This document shows positions 8,314 to 34,401 of a stretch of DNA of 64,000 nucleotides, in pieces. The notes below the pieces were generated by a model. The model searched no databases. It was not told the DNA's origin and saw only the letters and a list, made by a program, of their open reading frames with translations. A program made the position numbers and the translations under genes. Origin of the DNA: an uncultured Chloroflexia bacterium. Its GTDB lineage: Bacteria; Chloroflexota; Limnocylindria; Limnocylindrales; CSP1-4. Location of the stretch: the NCBI GenBank assembly GCA_963718085.1, contig CAVQYA010000002.1, positions 736,127 through 800,126 of the forward strand, read 5' to 3'. Each line of letters begins with the position of its first letter. Within the stretch, counting starts at the first letter, position 1.

Positions 8314-8562
8314 ATGACCGCCATCGACATGACCCTTCCCACCTACAGCCGCGGCCTCCGCTCGGTCGTTGCGACCGCAACCCGCGTGGCCGGCGCAACC
8401 GTGACCTGCGACGCCTGCGGCTGCCGCCTCACCACCCGCGAATCCGCGGACGACTCCGGCGTCACCGACTCCCGGAGCTGGTTCCACTTCGGCGGGTCCG
8501 CCGGACGCGACGCCCGCGGCTGCGCGGTCGCCTGCGTCGACGCTGCCCACCATATCGGCTGA
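8314..8562 (+). CDS. Hypothetical small Cys-rich protein.
   Basis: 82-aa ORF with CxxC..C..C. No known family recognised. A hairpin terminator lies downstream. Confidence 0.25.
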   Translation: MTAIDMTLPTYSRGLRSVVATATRVAGATVTCDACGCRLTTRESADDSGVTDSRSWFHFGGSAGRDARGCAVACVDAAHHIG

Positions 8563-8657: not shown

Positions 8658-8805
8658 TCCGGGACCGGATGAGCCGGGGGCGGCCCGGGCCTCGCCGGAC
8701 GCGGCGCCTGGTGTCGCGTCCCGCTGATTCCTGGACGGTTGCCCGTTGCGGCGGGAAGCACGGGGGCGCGGCCGCGAAGACGCCATCAGCCTGCGAATCG
8801 AGACC

Positions 8806-10173
8806 CTAGGCCGCCGCAGGGGCGGGTGCCGCCTCCACACCTGGCGCCCCGGGCTCGGCGATCGGGCGATCGCTCACCGGGCGGATGAGCAGGTAGCCGA
8901 TCACCATCGTCACGAGGAGCGTCAGGATCGCGACCTGGTAGGCACCGTTCCCGAACTGGCGGAAGAGCAGCCCGATCGTGATCCCGAAGAGGATCTGGCC
9001 CACGACCTGCGAGCCCTTGCCGACGAGGCCGTACAGGCCGAAGAACTCGCCGACCCGCTCCCGCGGGGAGAGGCGGAGCATGAAGACGCGGTCGGCGACC
9101 TGGACGCCGCCGAGCCCGCTCCCCGCGATCGCGCCGGCGGCGACCATCAGGCCGACGCCCAGGGGCGTCCCCGGCATGCCGAGCGCGAAGACCGCGAGGA
9201 AGAGCCCGAGCGCCCAGGACGCGAGGACCCAGAGGAGCGTCCTTCGGGGCCCGAACCGGTCGACGAGCCGGCCCCAGGCGAAGCTCGCGAGGATCGCCAC
9301 CACCGTCAGGACGAGGAGCAGGAGGAAGTAGACCTCCTCGAGGCCCATCGCCACCGCCAGGACGCTCATCGAGACGATCAGCGTGTTCACCGCGTCCGAG
9401 TAGAAGAAGCGGCCGAGCAGGAAGCGGCCGAGGCCGGGAATGGCGCGCGCGTGCGCGACGGTTGCGCGCACCTGCGTGAACGACGCCACGAGGTCGGCGC
9501 GCGTGAAGGCGGGCGTCTCGCGCTTCGGCTCCCGGACGATCAGGAAGATCGGGATCGCGAGGACCGCGAAGAGGAGCGCCTGGACCGGGAAGATCTGCTC
9601 GCGGGGGATGTCGAGGACGAGGAGGACGATCGCGATCAGGAGCGTGCCCATGTATCCGACCGCCACCCCGATCCCCGACAGGCGGCCACGGGACGCAGGG
9701 TACGAGACCGTGGAGAGCGTGGCGTCGTAGTAGATCAGCGCGGCCTGGTAGGAGAAGTTGGCGACCGTGAAGAGGATCGCCCCGACGATCACCGGGCTCG
9801 GCCCGATCAGCGCGGAGGCAACGACCGTGACCGCCGTGAACACGAAGAGGTACGGCAGCCGCCTTCCGCCGCGGTCGCTCAGGGCACCGAGCGGCGGCGA
9901 GACGACCGCGTTCAGCCCCACGCTCACGACGATGCAGACGGTGTAGGCGAGCTGGCCGCCGTCCTCGCCGAGCCCGCGGTCCTTGATGAACCAGAGCGCC
10001 ATCGCGGTGGAGACGACCGCGACGCTGTAGATCGTGTTCGCCAGGTCGTACAGGGCCCAGGCCGCGGGAACCCGGGCGCGGCCCGACGGGGTGAGGTCGG
10101 CCAGGCGGCCACCGAGTCCACCCCGCGGCTGATCGGGCGACGCGGTCGAGGCGGGCGCGGCGACGTCGGCCAT
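8806..10173 (-). CDS. MFS transporter (UMF1/Atg22-like family).
   Basis: 12-TM MFS topology. Starts MADVAAPAST at the ATG ending at 10173. The longer ORF upstream is Ala/Pro-rich and unlikely to be coding. Confidence 0.8.
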   Translation of the reverse strand: MADVAAPASTASPDQPRGGLGGRLADLTPSGRARVPAAWALYDLANTIYSVAVVSTAMALWFIKDRGLGEDGGQLAYTVCIVVSVGLNAVVSPPLGALSDRGGRRLPYLFVFTAVTVVASALIGPSPVIVGAILFTVANFSYQAALIYYDATLSTVSYPASRGRLSGIGVAVGYMGTLLIAIVLLVLDIPREQIFPVQALLFAVLAIPIFLIVREPKRETPAFTRADLVASFTQVRATVAHARAIPGLGRFLLGRFFYSDAVNTLIVSMSVLAVAMGLEEVYFLLLLVLTVVAILASFAWGRLVDRFGPRRTLLWVLASWALGLFLAVFALGMPGTPLGVGLMVAAGAIAGSGLGGVQVADRVFMLRLSPRERVGEFFGLYGLVGKGSQVVGQILFGITIGLLFRQFGNGAYQVAILTLLVTMVIGYLLIRPVSDRPIAEPGAPGVEAAPAPAAA

Positions 10174-10320
10174 TGGCGGGATCGTAGCGGGCGCGGGTGG
10201 CGACCGGAAGCCCCCGGGGGAGGCCGCGGTCGGTGGCTCCGGGAGGGCCGCGCACGGCGGCGGCGGGCGAGCGCCGGCGCACGGCGCCGGCGGGCGCGTC
10301 GGCGCTGCTACGATCAGGTC

Positions 10321-11028
10321 ATGCAACCCGACCCCCGCAGCTGGCGGCCCCAGTCGTTCGGACGGCGCAAGCCACGGGACCTGCGCGATCCGCTGGTGGA
10401 GCCGGCCTGGGACGGCATTCGCATCCTCGCCCACGTCGCGCCCGCGGGCGTCCACCTCGTCGATGCCAGGGGTGCGGACCTGGCGTCCGACCACCGGGAG
10501 ATCGTGGCCGCGCTGGCGACCGCCGGGCTGGCAAGCGCGGTCGTCGTCGACGGGTACCTCACGGACCAGGCGCTGCGGGACGGGGCGGGAGTCGTCCTCG
10601 AGGTCGACGAGAGTCCCGGAATGGGCGAGCACGTGACCCAGTTCTTCCTGGGAAAGCAGGTGGCCGACCACATGGGCGGCCGGGGGCAAGTCCCCGGCGG
10701 GTCCACGGCCCGGACGATCGCCCAGGTCGAGGCGGCTGCGGCCGAGGGCCCGGCGCCGATCGCCTTCGTCGCGGTCGACCTGGTCGCCATCGACGACGAG
10801 CCGCTGTTCGAGGTTCCCCTCCTCGAGCGCAAGCGCCTCCTGGAGAGCGTCCTCCCGGAGGGGCTGCACGTGCGCCGCACGCCCTTCGTCCGCGAGCCGG
10901 CCGGCAGCTTCATCAGGACCTGGCGGTCCACCGGCTTCCGCGGCCTCGCCTACAAGGAGGCGAACAGCCGCTACCACCCGGGCACGCCCAACGACGGCTG
11001 GTCCCTCGTCGCCATGCCGCGGCGCTGA
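10321..11028 (+). CDS. ATP-dependent DNA ligase-like adenylation-domain protein. It lacks the motif I lysine.
   Basis: Motif I reads EPAWDGIR where a canonical ligase has K-x-D-G, so K is replaced by A. Motif III reads DGYLT (canonically DGELV). A motif V-like FRGLAYKEANSRYHPG is present. Only 235 aa. Confidence 0.6.
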   Translation: MQPDPRSWRPQSFGRRKPRDLRDPLVEPAWDGIRILAHVAPAGVHLVDARGADLASDHREIVAALATAGLASAVVVDGYLTDQALRDGAGVVLEVDESPGMGEHVTQFFLGKQVADHMGGRGQVPGGSTARTIAQVEAAAAEGPAPIAFVAVDLVAIDDEPLFEVPLLERKRLLESVLPEGLHVRRTPFVREPAGSFIRTWRSTGFRGLAYKEANSRYHPGTPNDGWSLVAMPRR

Positions 11029-11072
11029 GGCCCTGCCGGTGACCCGCCCGTCACCCGTGGTACGGTGAGCCG

Positions 11073-12496
11073 GTGGCCCCCACCGTCCTGACGCCCGCGA
11101 TCAGCGCGGAGGTCGAACGCCTCGGCCGGGCCGACCTCGTCGTCGGCATCCCGAGCTTCAAGAACGCAACGACGATCGGGCACGTGACCCGGGCCGCACA
11201 GGCCGGGCTTGTCCAGTACTTCGCCGACCTGCGGCCCCTCCTCGTCAACGCCGACGCCGGCTCGCCCGACGGGACGCAGCGCGTGGTGGCCGAGACCGAG
11301 CCCCCGGACTACGTCGAGCGGATCCTCCTCGTCCGGCCGACGAACCGCCTCGAACGCCTGACCCTCACCTACCCCGAGGTCGACGGCGTCGGCGGCAAGG
11401 GAGCGGCCCTGCGCACGATCTTCGAGATCGCCGCCGCCCTCGACGCGCGGGCCCTCGTCGTCGTCGATTCCGATCTCCGCTCGATCACCCCCGAGTGGAT
11501 CGAGCTGCTGGCCGGGCCCATCCTCAAGGGCGGCTTCGACTACGTGACGCCGCTCTACGCCCGCCACAAGTACGACGGCACGATCACGAACACGGTCACC
11601 TACCCGCTGACGCGCGCCCTCTACGGCCGGCGGATCCGGCAGCCGATCGGCGGCGACTTCGGCGTCTCCGGCGACCTCGTCCGCCACTACCTGGCCCAGG
11701 AGGACTGGACCGCCGACGTCAGCAAGTTCGGGATCGACGTCTGGATGACGACGCACGCGCTCGTGGGCGGCTTCGCCGTCTGCGAGACGCGGCTCGGGGC
11801 CAAGGTCCACGACCCGAAGGACCCCTCGGGGGACCTCGGGCCGATGTTCCGCCAGGTGGTGGGGACGATCCTCGGGCTGGCGGGCCGCCACGCCGACGCG
11901 TGGCTCGAGATCCACGGCAGCCACGAGGTCCCGGCCTACGGCTTCGAGCGCTGGGTCGAGCCCAGCCCGCTCCAGGTGAACACGCTGCGCCTCCTCTCGG
12001 AGTTCGGGGCCGGGCGGGTGACCCTGGCCGAGACCTGGCGGGCGATGCTCGCCCCCGACCACGCCGCGGTGGTCGAGGAGCTGGCGATCGAGGCGGGCAA
12101 GCTCGCCGAGCGGGCCGCCCGGCGCCTGGGGATCGGCGGGACCGAGAGCGGCACGAACAGCGTCACCACGGACGAGATGAGCGAGGCCGTCGCCGGCTTC
12201 CACTTCCCCGACGAGCTGTGGGCCGGGATCGTCTACGACCTGGTCGTCGCCGCCCGCTTCGGCGCCATCCCGATCGAGCGCCTCGTGGCCGCCCTCGTGC
12301 CCCTCTACTTCGGGCGCGTGGGGAGCCTCGTCGTGGAGAGCCGCCACCTGGGCCAGGACGACGCCGAGGAACGCGTCGAGCGCCAGGCCCGCGCCTTCGA
12401 GCTCCGCAAGCCATACCTGGTCGAGCGCTGGCGCGTCGCGGACGAAGCCGCCCGGGCCGCCGAGGCCGACGCCGGCGGCCAGCCGGGCGGGCGCGC

Positions 12497-12500
<4 letters not shown>
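11073..12500 (+). CDS. GT-A fold glycosyltransferase. It is a GpgS/MpgS-like paralogue with a C-terminal extension of about 150 aa.
   Basis: VVGIPSFKNATTIG, the DxD motif (VVVDSDLRS) and GGDFGVSGDL parallel the GpgS motifs LVLPTLDEEATIG, DTD and AGEYAGRRSL in the next gene. Confidence 0.7.
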
Positions 12501-14409
<1,909 letters not shown>

Positions 14410-14413
<4 letters not shown>

Positions 14414-15687
14414 GGGGTACGGACGCTCGGGCCGGGAGGGCCGACGCCCGCCCCCTGGCAATCCTGGTGGCGCCGAATTCGTTCAAGGGGTCGCTGACGG
14501 CCGTCGAGGTTGCCCTGGCCCTGGCTCGCGGCTGGCAGCGAGCGCGACCACAGGACGAAGTCCGGCTGGCCCCGCTCGCCGACGGCGGCGAGGGGACGCT
14601 GGTCGCGATCGAGGTGGCCGGCGGCTGGGAATGGCGGAGCGCCGCCGCCCACGATCCGCTCGGGCGCCGGATCGAGGCGCGCTGGCTGCAGTCGGAGGAC
14701 GGGAGCCGCGCGGTCGTGGAGCTTGCGGCGGCGTCGGGCCTCTCGCGCCTCGCCGCGGGTGAGCGCGACCCGGCCGCGGCCTCGACCTTCGGCACGGGCG
14801 AGGTCCTGCGCGCGGTGCTCGACGCGGGGATCCGGCAGATCGACCTGGGCGTCGGGGGCAGCGCAACCACCGACGGCGGGCGGGGAATCCTGGCCGCCCT
14901 GGGGCTCGGCGTGACCCCGGAGCCGGACCTCGGCCTCGACCTCGACCTCGCCGTCGACCTCGACGCGCTGGACCCTCGCCTGGCGGAGGTCGATCTCCGG
15001 ATCGCCTCCGACGTGACGAACCCGCTGCTCGGCGAGACCGGCGCGGCTGCTGTCTACGGGCCCCAGAAGGGCGCCGGCGCGGTCGACGTCCGCAACCTCG
15101 ACGCCGCCCTGGAGCGCTGGGCGGACGCGCTGGAGGCGGCGACAGGGCGGCGCGAGCGGGACACGCCCGGGGCGGGTGCCGCGGGCGGCACCGTCTTCGG
15201 GCTGGCCTGCCTCCACGGCCGCTTCCGGTCATTCTCGATCGTGCCGGGAGTGGACTTCGTGATGGAGGCGACGGGCTTCGCCGGGAAGCTCGCCGGCGCC
15301 GACCTCGTGATCACCGGGGAGGGCCGGATCGACGGCCAGACGGCATTCGGGAAGACGGCTCTCGGCGTGGCCCGGCGGGCGGCCGCGGCCGGCGTCCCGT
15401 GCATCGCCGTCGGCGGCGGAGTCGAGCCCGAGGGGATCGAGGCCCTCGCGGCCCTGGGGACGCTGACCGTCCCCGTCGTCGAGCGGCCGCAGTCCATCGA
15501 GGAGGCGATGGCTGCCGGCCCGCTCCCCATCGAGCGCTGCGGCGAGCGCCTGGCTCGCCTCGTCGGGCTGGGGATGAGGTTGACCGTGACGAGACGTCCG
15601 CCGCGCACACCCGGCAAGGACCGGGGCAAGGTGGTGATCCACGACGACTTCGACGACCCACTCCCCGAGTTCGAGGAGTACACGTGA
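14410..15687 (+). CDS. Glycerate kinase (GlxK/GarK family).
   Basis: [14 protein letters not shown] ... GEG..D.QT..GK motifs. The GTG at 14410 overlaps the gpgS stop. Confidence 0.8.
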
Positions 15688-16548
15688 GCCGGCGGGCCTC
15701 CACCTCGTCTGGGGCGGCGGCCCTGAAGCGTCCCCGGAAGCCGCCCGACCCAGCCCGAACGTGGGCGCGCGCCCTCGACCGCCGCCGCCCCGGTCTCGTT
15801 CCCTTCGTGCTGGCGGAGCTGGCCACCCTCTACGGCACCCCCCGCCGCGACACGCGCCTGGACCCGGTCTCGGAGCTCGTCCTCACGATCCTCTCCCAGA
15901 ACACGGCCGACGTGAACTCCGAGCGGGCCTTCGAGGCGCTCCGCGCCGCCTACCCGGCCGACGGGCCGGTCACGGTCCACCGCGTGGTCGGCCCCGACGG
16001 CACCGAGGCGCCGCCCGAAGGCTGGGGCGGTCGCGGGCTCGCCGCCGGGTCCGCACCGGACTGGGCCGCGGTCGAGCACGCCCCGCTCGAGGAGCTCATG
16101 GAGGTGATCCGGCCCGGCGGGCTCGCCCTCCAGAAGGCGCCGCGCATCCAGGCCGCCCTGCGCCACGTTCGCGAGGCGTCCGGCGGCTACGACCTCGGCT
16201 TCCTCGCGGCGATGGAGCCGCGGGCAGCCCGCGACTGGCTCACCCGGGTCCCCGGGATCGGCAGGAAGACGGCGTCGATCGTGCTGCTCTTCTGCTTCGG
16301 GCAGCCGCTCATGCCGGTGGACACCCACGTCGAGCGGGTGAGCCGCCGGATCGGCCTCGTGCCGCCGAAGGCCGGGCCCGACGAGCAGCACGAGGTCTAC
16401 TGGCACCTGCTCGCGCCGGAGGACGTCCACGCCGGCCCACGTGCTGCTCATCCAGCACGGGCGCCGGACCTGCGACGCGCGCCGTCCCGCCTGCGACCGC
16501 TGCCCGCTCGCTCCCCGCTGCCGCTACCTCGACCCGAAGGCGCCATAG
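15684..16548 (+). CDS. nth: Endonuclease III family (HhH-GPD, Nth). The reading frame is broken by one frameshift near 16437.
   Basis: The HhH-GPD core is present ([45 protein letters not shown]). The C-terminal Fe-S motif [22 protein letters not shown] appears only in another frame, ending at TAG 16546-16548. Confidence 0.65.
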
Positions 16549-31175: not shown

Positions 31176-31250
31176 GCCGACATAGCTCAGCGGTAGAGCA
31201 GCTGTTTCGTAAACAGCAGGTCCTCGGTTCAAATCCGAGTGTCGGCTCCA
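31176..31250 (+). tRNA. tRNA-Thr, anticodon CGT.
   Basis: Cloverleaf read by hand. Acceptor gccgaca/tgtcggc, D-stem gctc/gagc, anticodon stem gctgt/acagc with loop ttCGTaa, T-arm ctcgg-ttcaaat-ccgag, and an encoded CCA. Confidence 0.85.
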
Positions 31251-31263
31251 GCGATCTGAACGT

Positions 31264-31289
31264 GAAACCCGGTCGAGAGGCCGGGTTTC
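31264..31289 (+). terminator. Hairpin terminator after the tRNA.
   Basis: gaaacccgg / ccgggtttc 9-bp stem, followed by gtgctcttcc. Confidence 0.5.
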
Positions 31290-31371
31290 GTGCTCTTCCG
31301 GTGACCGTCTGACCACCACGCGGCCAGCCCGTCGAGCATCCGGCCGATCCGCTCCTCGTTGGTGATCGCCA

Positions 31372-32805
31372 TCAGGTCCTCCCGGATGGCGTGGCGGCCT
31401 CGTAGTCCAGGCTGGCGCGATAGAGGTCTGCGGGCCCGACCAGGCGCAGGCCGGGAACGGACCGCAGGGCCGGGTCGAAGCCCGACCGCGAGAAGAGCAG
31501 CAGGGCGGGGTCCGCGCCCGGGGCAATCACGGCGACGTCACGCTTCAGGTCGGCAAGATGCGCCGGCTTCACGAACCCGCGTGTCCACTTGGCCGACCCG
31601 GCGACGCGCACCCGGCCCCCGGCCACCCCGACGACGTCGACATCGCCGGCGTCGATCCAGTGCTGCCCCACCGCCTCCATGACGGGCAGCTCTCCGGCGC
31701 CCGACAGCCGGCGCAGGTACTGAGCGGCGACGTCCTCGAAGACCCGGCTCACGTGCGCGTCCAGGGCGACGGGCCACAGGTCGTCGAGCACCTTCGCGCC
31801 CTGGCCAAGCAGGATCGCGCTGCGCCACGGGTCCACCAGCGCGAAGTAGAAGCGAAGGTACGGATCGGTCAGGACGTAACGGCTGATGCGCGGCCGCGGG
31901 TCGGAGGCCTCCGTGGGCAGGGTTCGCCGCTCCACGAGCTCCAGGCGGATCAGGCGCTCCAGGTACGGAGCCGCAGTGGCTGCGCTCTTCATGCCGGCCA
32001 GCGTCGCGATCCGCGACGGCTGGTGCTCGCCGCCCGCCATCGCCCGAAGGATCGATTCGTAGGTCCGCGGCTCGTTGAACTCGGCGCGGAGGAGGTCGGG
32101 CGCCTCCCGGAACAGGCGTCCGTCCGGCGTGTACGCGAGCCGAAGCAGCTCGTCGCGGAGCGGCCGGTCGGTCGACAGCTCTTCGAGATGGTCCGGGATG
32201 CCGCCGGCGACCGCGTACGCCCGAACTCGGTCCTCCGGACCCCAGCCGGCCACGAAGCGGCCCGCCTGGAAGTAGTCGAACGGACGGAGCCAGATCGATC
32301 GTGTCGGCCGTCCGTAGAGGGCGCCGTCGTGGGAGGTCAGCCGCTGCATCATCGCCTGCTCCGAGCCGGAGAGGACGATGACCACGTCGGCCCGCGATCC
32401 TGTCCTGTCCCACCATCGCTGGAGCAGAGATGGGAGCGCCGGCTCCGCGTCGCAGAGGTACGGGAACTCGTCGAGCACCAGGCCAACGCGCCCACGGACG
32501 GAGGCCGCCGCCACGACGTCGAGCGCCTCCTCCCAGTCGCGCAGCGCGAGGCGCGGCGGTCGACCGCGCCGGAAATCCACGGACAGCGGACCGAGCGCCC
32601 GGCCCAGGTCGGCCAGCTGGTCAGTGGCAAGCTGCTGGGCCGCGACGAAGAAGGCCACGGGACGGCGCGCGGCGAATCGGGCCAGGAGCTCGGTCTTGCC
32701 GACCCGGCGGCGCCCGTGGAGGACCACGAGCTCCGGCACCCCGGAAGCCCACGCCTCCGCCAGCGTTCGCTGCTCGATCACCCGGTCCACGAAGCGTCGT
32801 GCCAT
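31372..32805 (-). CDS. AAA-type ATPase with a DUF234 C-terminal domain (Arch_ATPase-like ATP-binding protein).
   Basis: Walker A GRRRVGKTELL, Walker B LVLDEFPYL, and a DUF234-like C-terminus. Confidence 0.75.
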   Translation of the reverse strand: MARRFVDRVIEQRTLAEAWASGVPELVVLHGRRRVGKTELLARFAARRPVAFFVAAQQLATDQLADLGRALGPLSVDFRRGRPPRLALRDWEEALDVVAAASVRGRVGLVLDEFPYLCDAEPALPSLLQRWWDRTGSRADVVIVLSGSEQAMMQRLTSHDGALYGRPTRSIWLRPFDYFQAGRFVAGWGPEDRVRAYAVAGGIPDHLEELSTDRPLRDELLRLAYTPDGRLFREAPDLLRAEFNEPRTYESILRAMAGGEHQPSRIATLAGMKSAATAAPYLERLIRLELVERRTLPTEASDPRPRISRYVLTDPYLRFYFALVDPWRSAILLGQGAKVLDDLWPVALDAHVSRVFEDVAAQYLRRLSGAGELPVMEAVGQHWIDAGDVDVVGVAGGRVRVAGSAKWTRGFVKPAHLADLKRDVAVIAPGADPALLLFSRSGFDPALRSVPGLRLVGPADLYRASLDYEAATPSGRT

Positions 32806-32850
32806 GGCGCTAGTTTAACTCAACTTAAACTAATCATGTTTCAACTAAGC
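32806..32850. promoter_or_regulatory. AT-rich palindromic element, about 25% GC, immediately upstream of the DUF234 ATPase gene.
   Basis: tagtttaa-ctcaac-ttaaacta is a perfect 8-bp inverted repeat, followed by atcatgtttcaactaa. It stands out in a 72% GC context. Confidence 0.4.
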
Positions 32851-32971
32851 CAGCTCCAGGCTGGTCTGCGCGGAGCCAGCCGCACGGGCCGACTTGGCGC
32901 CGCGGGAGACTTGAACCCGCGACGGGCGCGCCCCGGCGCGAGACTCGCCTGGTGGTGCGTGGGGCGCCTTG

Positions 32972-34270
32972 TCAGGCCGTGAGGGTGCCGACCGGGACGA
33001 CGAAGACGCCGTCGGACCGCCGGTAGGCGTAGCCCCAGCCGGTGATGATGGCCAGGAACGCAGGCCTGCCGTGACGCTCAGGGTCGACGTTCGCGGCGAC
33101 CCTGAGCAGGCTGTTGGCGCCCTTGTCGATGTCGCCCTGGCCGAGCTTGACTTCGACCGCTGCCCATTGGCCGGACCGCATCTGGAGGATCGCGTCAGCC
33201 TCCGCGCCCGTGTTCTCCCGGTAGTGGGACACGGAGGCTCCGATCGCCTGACCGTAGACGCGCAGATCCCGGACGACGAGCGACTCGAAGAGGAACCCGA
33301 GGGTCTCGGGGTCGCGGAGAAGCCGGTCGGGGCCGGCTCCCAGGGCGGCAGCCGCAAGCGAGGGATCGACGAAATGGCGCGTCACCGACGAGCGAAGCAC
33401 GCCCCGTGAGCGCAGCGACGGAGACCACGCAGGCAGGTCCTCGACGATGAACAGGCGCGTGAGCGCCTTGATGTAGTCGATGACCGTGTGGTAGTTGATC
33501 GCGCGCGGCCCGTCGGCTCCGGCGACGTCGGCACCGATGATCGAGGCCGAGGCTTCCGTGGCCACGCACCGTGCGAGCGAACGGAGGAGGCGAGCGACGT
33601 TCTCCGGGTCGTGGCGCGGACCATCGAGCCGGCCGAGGTCGACGCGGCACGTCTCGTCGAGGTAGCCCTGCGTGGCGACCATGGCATCCGCCGGGTCCCG
33701 ACGCAGCAGCGCCGGCCAGCCGCCGACGACGATCCGCTCGACGATGTCGCGAATGTCGAGGCCGGGGTCCGCCGCCACGGCTGTGTCGCCCGCGAACAGG
33801 CCCGCCAGTGACACGGCCCTGCTGGAGTGCCCGCTCTCGGCGAGCGACATGGGGCGCATCCGCAGGCGCGTGATCCGCAGAGCCCCCGTGTGCCGGGTCT
33901 CGTCGTCGGATGGGACCGCAGAGCCGGCGAGGATGTAGCGGCCGGTCTCCTCGGGGTGGTCGTCGACGTCGCCGCGGACCTCGTTCCAGACGTCCTTCAC
34001 AAGCTGCCACTCGTCGATGAGTCGAGGCCGCTCACCGTCGAGCAGGAGCGCCGGGTTCAGCTCACCGACCCTGCGTGCCGCCGGATCCCGGTCAAGACGC
34101 ACCGCGCTCTTCGCGGCCTGGAGAGCGGTCTGGGTCTTGCCACAGCCTCGAGGCCCCTCGACGAGGACGGCTCCGGTCGCTCGGAGCCGACTCGCCAGCT
34201 CCGCGTCGGCGAACCTGGGGATGTAGTCGCGGATTCGCCCAAGGGACTTGTCGGGGTTGGAGGCGCTCAT
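32972..34270 (-). CDS. AAA_14 ATPase with a DUF4143 (PD-(D/E)xK-like) C-terminal domain.
   Basis: YIPRF..., Walker A GPRGCGKTQ, and C-terminal EADAIL...AVEVK resembling a D-ExK nuclease motif. Confidence 0.75.
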   Translation of the reverse strand: MSASNPDKSLGRIRDYIPRFADAELASRLRATGAVLVEGPRGCGKTQTALQAAKSAVRLDRDPAARRVGELNPALLLDGERPRLIDEWQLVKDVWNEVRGDVDDHPEETGRYILAGSAVPSDDETRHTGALRITRLRMRPMSLAESGHSSRAVSLAGLFAGDTAVAADPGLDIRDIVERIVVGGWPALLRRDPADAMVATQGYLDETCRVDLGRLDGPRHDPENVARLLRSLARCVATEASASIIGADVAGADGPRAINYHTVIDYIKALTRLFIVEDLPAWSPSLRSRGVLRSSVTRHFVDPSLAAAALGAGPDRLLRDPETLGFLFESLVVRDLRVYGQAIGASVSHYRENTGAEADAILQMRSGQWAAVEVKLGQGDIDKGANSLLRVAANVDPERHGRPAFLAIITGWGYAYRRSDGVFVVPVGTLTA

Positions 34271-34401
34271 TTGGAACTCTGTGGCGTGCTATGTTGTAAC
34301 GACTGTAGACGCTAACTTGGCGTTCGTCAAGGCGTCACACCTCGCCCCGCATCGACCCCCGACGTACCACTCCCTCGCGCGGGCTGTTACGTTGGCACCG
34401 A

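Follow-up and report, generated by a model that had tools for sequence, protein, structure and literature searches.

Does a protein built on the adenylation domain of an ATP-dependent DNA ligase remain a ligase when the lysine that should carry the nucleotide is missing, and if it does not, what could it be? This question is raised by a gene for a 235-residue ligase-like protein found in a 64,000-nucleotide stretch of contig CAVQYA010000002.1 (assembly GCA_963718085.1, an uncultured Chloroflexia bacterium), referred to below as the window. An earlier note, made from the sequence alone, had proposed that the protein is a catalytically dead ligase. The answer reached here is that it is, very probably, not a ligase. 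Homologous to ligases yet failing the features that define them, it is a non-catalytic variant, and we favour, with moderate confidence, the view that it is a conserved LigD-derived pseudo-ligase in which only the adenylation fold has been kept and which would act as a non-catalytic binding or scaffold module.

Fold and motifs of the ligase-like protein

The plus-strand frame is the real coding frame, since the GC content at its third codon positions (GC3) is 0.94, compared to only 0.79 for the long minus-strand open reading frame (ORF) that overlaps it over the same interval; its values at the three codon positions (0.77/0.51/0.94) are typical of genuine genes in this window, which is 73% GC. 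The idea that the ORF is a piece of a longer or frameshifted ligase was rejected: the upstream in-frame DNA is non-coding by GC3, a glycosyltransferase gene comes next, and all homologues share the same end point. The protein is 94% identical to the cluster representative P0001 and is itself present in the public collection. Its homology to the nucleotidyltransferase (NTase), or adenylation, domain of ATP-dependent DNA ligases is apparent from both sequence and fold. At the sequence level, it matches the Pfam model PF01068 (DNA_ligase_A_M) with 38.4 bits against a cut-off of 26.2 (E 1.4e-9), in line with the adenylation-domain motifs that had been read from the sequence. The NCBIfam models for LigD and ligases of non-homologous end joining (NHEJ) (TIGR02779, PRK09632 etc.) give weak matches (E 4e-13 for TIGR02779), the best of which, with 49.3 bits, fails the equivalog cut-off of 227.75, and a profile of the family picks up ligases of archaea and of the LigD type with E-values of 1e-12 to 1e-14.

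Structure prediction, which the earlier note had put forward as a check, returned a ligase-type fold. The AlphaFold2 model computed from 75 diverse family members has a mean predicted local distance difference test score (pLDDT) of 82 and a predicted template modelling score (pTM) of 0.76, with a core above 94 and only residues 89–131 below 50; an earlier model, from a 30-sequence alignment, was mediocre (pLDDT 63). Residues 89–131 form an insertion that is shorter by about 25–30 residues in distant clades. A Foldseek search of the PDB returned only ATP-dependent DNA ligases among the 50 matches listed, with capping enzymes, RNA ligases and NAD ligases among the lower-ranked matches. The adenylation-domain fold is thus retained in the ligase-like protein.

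The register of the ligase motifs was fixed in two ways, by phmmer against the PDB and by a 75-sequence family profile, both onto M. tuberculosis LigD (1vs0, 6nhx). The former aligns residues 27–34, E-P-A-W-D-G-I-R, with E-G-K-W-D-G-Y-R of LigD and residues 146–227 with LigD motifs IIIa–V, and the latter gives the same motif register. The three strings singled out in the sequence, EPAWDGIR (27–34), DGYLT (77–81) and RGLAYKEANSRYHPG (207–221), were all found. More specifically, (i) because EPAWDGIR aligns on EGKWDGYR, the site of the adenylated lysine is occupied by Ala29, so that the KxDG of motif I is lost, its aspartate being variable in the family as well; (ii) the glutamate of motif III is replaced by Tyr79, as had been proposed; (iii) the motif IV glutamate is replaced by R207, K212 being the only one of the motif III–V catalytic residues listed here to be retained; (iv) both lysines of the motif V Lys-x-Lys are gone, with L229 and A231 at those positions. 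The third string had been assigned to motif V: its glutamate is indeed lost, but RGLAYK corresponds to motif IV (EGxxxK) and motif V is W227-S-L-V-A. We found no alternative alignment placing a lysine at the adenylation site and no invariant lysine or histidine elsewhere among 356 family representatives. Finally, the OB-fold domain with its motif VI, which is needed for adenylation and nick sealing, is absent, as the earlier note had also stated: the alignment to 1vs0 ends where the OB domain of 1vs0 begins, the protein stops 8 residues past the motif V Trp, and the next gene starts 44 nt further downstream.

As judged from these alignments, the protein is a LigD-derived NTase-fold protein that has lost its nucleophile, its contacts to ribose and phosphate, its catalytic acid and its OB domain. 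With no OB domain, and with other residues in place of those for lysyl-AMP formation, for ribose/phosphate contacts and for metal-dependent catalysis, it should be unable to carry out the three-step ligase reaction, and lysyl-AMP chemistry in particular is excluded for the window protein by its predicted active site. Tight nucleotide binding is doubtful too, because the lysine site is usually hydrophobic in the family and the aromatic residue that precedes the motif IIIa aspartate is lost.

Extent and conservation of the family

Three homology searches gave 618, 1262 and 610 homologues. The best 120 of the 618 are 233–260 residues long and the more distant ones about 200–290. When these 120 are aligned with the window protein (121 sequences), Ala occupies position 29 in 118, Gly in two, Ser in one and Lys in none, so that the search for orthologues with the same lysine-to-alanine change was positive in the close relatives, with other residues appearing family-wide; DGYLT is essentially invariant in the same alignment. 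When the gene was translated from 26 species-level genomes (36–83% identity), position 29 was A, L, H or G, and never K. A profile search of 1.84 billion cluster representatives yielded 80 clusters (50% identity) at E <1e-30, with motif I reading EP[LAVHQGYFPRDEWC]W and a lysine in one cluster; the first genuine LigD (778 residues, EPKWDG...DGEL) appeared only at E 1e-18. The third homology search recovered a sister group (group 2) of 200–236 residues with the pattern WLFEPxWxGER ... DG[VI]W ... AKHxNSRY.

Residue counts for the whole family were made on 356 cluster representatives from group 1, to which the window protein belongs, and group 2. The lysine position is non-Lys in 349 of them: it is occupied in group 1 by A (130), L (24), H (24), R (14), Y (10), K (7), D (7) and others, and in group 2 by L (60), D (26), F (17), A (6) and others, never K. 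The invariant D77 and G78 are followed at position 79 by Y, F, W or V, never by E; D153, also invariant, is preceded by V, I or L in almost all representatives (T in 2/356). Position 207 is most often G (124), R (29) or E (29) in group 1 and T or S in group 2. All group 1 representatives have K212, which is an arginine in 29 of the 120 group 2 sequences, and K171 is replaced in all of group 2 (Arg in 115, His in 5); no column of the alignment is an invariant Lys or His. The seven representatives with a lysine in motif I (P0297, P0303, P0309–P0311, P0313 and P0330; EPKW[FYHS]GTR) have a canonical EGIVAK motif IV together with a DG[YF]L motif III, no motif I aspartate and no OB domain. In a rough neighbour-joining tree rooted on LigD, they are nested in a clade with free variation at position 29, and their lysine therefore looks secondary rather than ancestral, the tree offering weak evidence on this point; the subclade may be a partial revertant.

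Over 75 diverse sequences, 24 columns are invariant. The conserved residues shared with LigD are E27, P28, W30, G32, R34, D77, G78, D153, P166, E169, R170, R172, G205, K212, the S-R-Y-x-x-G segment and W227; those that are specific to the family and conserved in both groups are Q11, Q83, W201-R202 and N215, and P10 is likewise conserved in group 2. The family can thus be defined as proteins of about 200–260 residues with an NTase domain only and the signature WRPQ...EPxWxG[RH]...DG[YF]LTDQA...FVAVD...PLLERKR...KxANSRYxPG...W, and the window protein agrees with all of the definition. Its members are acidic (group median pI about 5.2–5.3; 6.2 for the window protein). A scan of one genome per GTDB species gave 54 loci, nearly all of them in metagenome-assembled genomes (MAGs) of Chloroflexota, Chloroflexia or Candidatus Limnocylindria/-ales, and the family appears to be restricted to Chloroflexota, in Limnocylindria-type MAGs of an uncultured soil and freshwater lineage.

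The ORF is intact and of conserved length in the 60 distinct loci compared, contrary to what would be expected of an ORF that relatives do not conserve. Codon alignments guided by tblastn, in which dS (synonymous divergence) is near saturation beyond about 70% identity, gave for the ligase-like gene a ratio of non-synonymous to synonymous divergence (dN/dS) of 0.24–0.39 against relatives at 63–83% protein identity, versus 0.08–0.16 for the adjacent glycosyltransferases and 0.16–0.22 for the glycerate kinase when the same pairs of genomes are compared; in round figures, this is about 0.27–0.33 for the ligase-like gene and about 0.1 for the glycosyltransferases. The dN of the ligase-like gene is 3–4 times that of the two glycosyltransferases, and the protein is 36–83% identical across loci, versus 68–98% in most loci for the adjacent glycosyltransferase. 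The ligase-like gene is thus under purifying yet relaxed selection, a regime that is common for pseudoenzymes, and it is conserved throughout a bacterial lineage of class rank. The loss of catalytic residues is, from the sequences compared, a family trait and not decay; consequently, of the earlier description as a truncated and dead ligase, the loss of catalytic residues stands, but the protein is not truncated, being a full-length member of a family under purifying selection.

Promoter-like elements and gene neighbourhood

The alignment of upstream regions contains a single conserved block, GCTG[CG]TACGATC, which ends 6 nt before the ATG and includes an extended -10-like element (Table 1). 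A TAnnnT sequence lies 6–7 nt before an in-frame ATG or GTG in 55 of 60 loci, against 0.34 expected from shuffles. The same test applied to the next gene was positive in 53 of 59 loci (cgTGgTA[CG]GGT, 6–7 nt before GTG/ATG), and TACGAT is found 7 nt before the ATG of the divergent transporter gene. A scan of 9900–11400 for sigma-70 and terminator consensus sequences gave no match; the conserved element, a -10 box alone, came to light through the comparison of loci. As the -10 box abuts the start codon, too close for a leader with a Shine-Dalgarno sequence, both the ligase-like gene and the one after it are predicted to start leaderless mRNAs; the position of the second box suggests that the transcript of the next gene begins inside the 44-nt spacer. 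The ligase-like gene is therefore probably a transcription unit of its own abutting a gpgS-type operon, with possible read-through into the next gene, since the consensus scan found no terminator between them. It had been said to head the gpgS gene string: its conserved place directly upstream is borne out, but, the next gene having its own -10 box, heading the string stands for conserved adjacency rather than for a proven operon. Note that TAnnnT also lies 6–7 nt before six further genes of the window (at 624, 2920, 10173 on the minus strand, 16616, 32805 on the minus strand, and 39951), which include those for VKOR, the MFS transporter, a response regulator and an ATPase; leaderless transcripts may be a common feature of the organism.

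Table 1. The ligase-like gene, its motifs and its neighbours (positions in the window)
Feature	Position	Strand	Remarks
CDS, 235-aa ligase-like (pseudo-ligase) protein	10321..11028	+	ATG start, stop codon 11026–11028
Extended -10-like element TGcTACGAT	10306..10314	+	6 nt before ATG 10321; sole conserved upstream block
Family-specific N-terminal motif W8-R-P-Q11	10342..10353	+	aligns with LigD ..A-P-M..; near-invariant in group 1
Degenerate motif I E27-P-A29-W-D-G-I-R34	10399..10422	+	Ala29 codon 10405–10407 in place of adenylated Lys
Degenerate motif III D77-G-Y79-L-T	10549..10563	+	canonical DGElV; Glu to Tyr
Insertion between motifs III and IIIa, residues 89–131	10585..10713	+	pLDDT <50 in both models; length-variable
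Motif IIIa region F149-V-A-V152-D153	10765..10779	+	LigD F-W-A-F-D; aromatic before Asp to Val
Degenerate motif IV R207-G-L-A-Y-K212	10939..10956	+	canonical EGxxxK; Glu lost, Lys retained
Motif V remnant and C-terminus W227-S-L-V-A-M-P-R-R	10999..11025	+	compare LigD W-L-K-D-K
Extended -10-like element TGgTACGGT of next gene	11058..11066	+	6 nt before GTG 11073
Divergent MFS/ATG22-type transporter	8806..10173	-	orthologues carry PF07690/PF11700; in about half of loci
GpgS-like GT-A glycosyltransferase U475, 475 aa	11073..12500	+	GTG start; NCBIfam GpgS 50 bits, below cut-off
USP-GpgS fusion (glucosyl-3-phosphoglycerate synthase)	12497..14413	+	Pfam Usp + GT2; NCBIfam GpgS 365 bits, cut-off 262
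Glycerate kinase	14455..15687	+	PF02595, 374 bits
HhH-GPD (Ogg-like) DNA glycosylase homologue	15699..16548	+	aligns to L004 orthologue in two frames

The gene order across relatives, which the window shares, is VKOR, HNH, CCA-adding enzyme, TPR protein, epimerase and an 82–83-residue Cys-rich ORF, then the MFS/ATG22 transporter (opposite strand), the ligase-like gene and a 455–490-residue GpgS-like GT-A glycosyltransferase, and finally the USP-GpgS fusion, glycerate kinase, HhH-GPD glycosylase, response regulator and histidine kinase. The transporter gene is divergent from the ligase-like gene, as had been noted; its window copy has no Pfam match at E<=0.001, and its orthologues, 40–52% identical, carry MFS_1/ATG22. 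The glycosyltransferase that follows the ligase-like gene, named U475 here, likewise has no Pfam match at E<=0.001; an orthologue has a weak MGS_GT match, and the identity range given above for most loci has outliers. U475, which is the most conserved gene of the cluster, is likely to be a second, uncharacterised glycosyl-(phospho)glycerate synthase beside the USP-GpgS fusion. Its identification as MggA was dismissed, MggA being a GT4 enzyme (PMC3736172) and U475 a GpgS-like GT-A protein.

Of about 60 loci, nearly all have the ligase-like gene directly upstream of a GpgS-like glycosyltransferase gene. A distant clade has a gene for a 376–486-residue GNAT acetyltransferase between the two (8687..10147 in locus L063; 8675..9805 in L064). 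The overlap of this gene with the 3' end of the ligase-like gene, 4 bp with the stop codon included in L063 and about 31 bp in L064, is suggestive of translational coupling. Locus L054 is rearranged to epimerase, ligase-like gene and GT2, and the sister group has the end of a DEAD-box helicase gene 3–34 nt upstream (7082..7966 in L066; 6732..7997 in L067), with the GpgS-like glycosyltransferase still downstream. The adjacency outlasts rearrangements on both sides, all within one lineage.

Several further features of the window were recorded. The 82-residue Cys-rich ORF (8314..8562, plus strand; ..CDACGC..C..C..) has no Pfam match, is 77% identical in L004 and lies upstream of the ligase-like or MFS gene in many relatives. 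The HhH-GPD homologue is read in frames 15699–16427 and 16429–16548, with an apparent frameshift near 16428 that would reflect either a pseudogene or a fault in the assembly. Scanned as a whole with Rfam, the window gave one tRNA only and no RNA element near the ligase-like gene. This tRNA gene (31176–31247) is next to two minus-strand AAA-ATPase genes (ATPase_2+DUF234 and AAA_14+DUF4143), followed by a gene for a MalT-like LuxR regulator; the region 31176..34288 could be an integration hotspot or island.

Candidate roles and known systems

The favoured reading is as follows. The family, found in Chloroflexota of the Limnocylindria type, stems from a LigD-type ATP-dependent DNA ligase and has kept only the NTase fold; the gene would have a promoter of its own and give a leaderless mRNA, as the conserved -10 box suggests; and the old ligase surface, together with W8-R-P-Q11, T81-D-Q-A84, W201-R202 and N215, would hold a partner protein or a ligand. 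Some observations weigh against it. Seven of the 356 representatives combine a motif I lysine with an EGIVAK motif IV, and some of these members might retain partial chemistry. E27, G32, R34, D77, D153 and K212 are kept, so that some nucleotide contact is possible. The acidity of the family disfavours generic nucleic-acid binding. Lastly, the whole surrounding region is syntenic across the lineage, so that adjacency to the glycosyltransferase gene, taken by itself, gives weak support to a functional connection.

The alternative that survives best, although we regard it as unlikely, is a sensor of adenine nucleotides or NDP-sugars, the pocket of which would bind ATP, AMP, NAD or an NDP-hexose non-covalently and which would tune the adjacent glucosylglycerate pathway (GpgS-like glycosyltransferase, USP-GpgS and glycerate kinase). 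E27, R34, D77 and K212 show little or no variation, and E27 occupies the position that reads adenine N6 in established ligase structures; the place upstream of the GpgS-like glycosyltransferase gene is kept even where the upstream neighbours have changed, as in the deep sister group, and in L054, where the cluster is rearranged, a GT2 gene still follows; and Snurportin-1 is a precedent for the same fold as a pure nucleotide binder. A sensor is, however, difficult to reconcile with the loss of the lysines in motifs I and V that contact phosphate, of the ribose-contacting motif III glutamate and of the aromatic residue before the motif IIIa aspartate, the lysine site being mostly hydrophobic, or with the separate conserved -10 boxes of the ligase-like gene and the next gene; in addition, with synteny extending over the region, their adjacency is possibly inherited rather than functional.

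A non-catalytic binder of DNA nicks or ends, that is, a LigD relic that would mark or protect breaks or recruit repair enzymes such as the HhH-GPD glycosylase, is less probable still. The ligase domains of NHEJ LigD are the nearest sequence relatives of the protein, R34 and the S-R-Y-x-P-G/W227 segment are conserved in common with LigD, the HhH-GPD gene overlaps the glycerate-kinase stop codon by 4 bp in relatives, and a DEAD-box helicase gene precedes the ligase-like gene in the sister group. Against this, the protein has neither an OB domain nor a DNA-binding domain, and the NTase domain of ligases binds DNA weakly on its own; the protein is acidic, and no Ku or polymerase/primase genes lie near the ligase-like gene.

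We consider it very unlikely that the protein is a still-active nucleotidyltransferase or ligase working through another nucleophile or a partner in trans, e.g. an OB-fold protein, the arrangement seen in the editing ligases of kinetoplastids. Such an enzyme would be in keeping with the seven lysine-bearing representatives and with the invariance of K212 in group 1, but no lysine or histidine is invariant family-wide, K171 being replaced throughout group 2 and K212 in part of it, the lysine-bearing sequences lie deep inside a freely varying clade, the motif III position is never a glutamate and the window protein's own group has no motif V lysines. As for a decaying, functionless, pseudogene-like ORF, the fast non-synonymous evolution and the low identity across loci relative to the neighbouring genes speak for it, but we give it almost no credit, and it is already contradicted by conservation data, namely an ORF that is intact and of conserved length in every locus examined, the 24 invariant columns, a dN/dS of about 0.3, well under 1, a promoter-like element kept in 55 of 60 loci and a core fold predicted with confidence.

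For the pseudo-ligase reading, a more far-reaching version may be entertained, tentatively: the LigD ligase domain could have been repurposed lineage-wide as a small regulator or adaptor that controls compatible-solute synthesis of the glucosylglycerate type, by sensing nucleotides or NDP-sugars or by docking on the GpgS-like glycosyltransferase, GNAT or DEAD-box neighbours, or it could carry out a new, non-covalent chemistry through WRPQ, TDQA, W201-R202 and N215. Our search of the literature on lysine-less or pseudo-ligases, non-catalytic analogues of the NTase fold and Limnocylindria or glucosylglycerate gave no description of the family, nor of any bacterial pseudo-ligase or lysine-less homologue of ATP-dependent ligases. 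In public collections its members, the window protein included, are named "ATP-dependent DNA ligase", "LigD" or "bifunctional NHEJ protein LigD"; because hundreds of clusters of the family are labelled in this way, inferences on DNA repair in Limnocylindria MAGs ("has NHEJ ligase") that draw on such names are probably wrong. The family would be a clean bacterial case of a covalent-nucleotidyltransferase fold outliving its catalysis, beside eukaryotic snurportin and poxvirus A20, and its fixed place by a glucosylglycerate-type cluster offers a testable hypothesis that ties a DNA-enzyme fold to osmolyte or stress metabolism.

Among known systems, the best sequence relatives of the ligase-like protein are ligase domains of the LigD/LigC type (M. 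tuberculosis LigD). Both have in common E-P-x-W-x-G-x-R, D-G, the motif IIIa aspartate, P-L-x-E-R-[KR]-R-L-L, G-[FI], the motif IV lysine and, in the C-terminal part, S-R-Y-x-[PT]-G and the motif V Trp. Unlike LigD, the ligase-like protein lacks the adenylated lysine, the motif III and motif IV glutamates and the motif V Lys-x-Lys, as well as the OB, POL and PE domains; it has an extra disordered insertion of about 45–50 residues between motifs III and IIIa, and its family has invariant WRPQ, TDQA, W201-R202 and N215. Minimal (Lig E-type) and NTase-only ligases, such as Psychromonas Lig E (4d05) and the kinetoplastid editing ligase REL1 (1xdn), differ from it in keeping all catalytic motifs, including the lysine. 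The ligase-like domain of the poxvirus polymerase processivity factor A20/A22R (8wpf_B) is structurally far more distant, is viral and is part of a large multidomain protein, the replication-complex role of which has no parallel in the neighbourhood of the ligase-like gene. The m3G-cap-binding domain of Snurportin-1 (1xk5) likewise has an NTase fold without the catalytic lysine; being eukaryotic, from the capping-enzyme branch and only 12% identical, it is an analogue and not a family member, and both its ligand, m3GpppG, and its stacking tryptophans are known.

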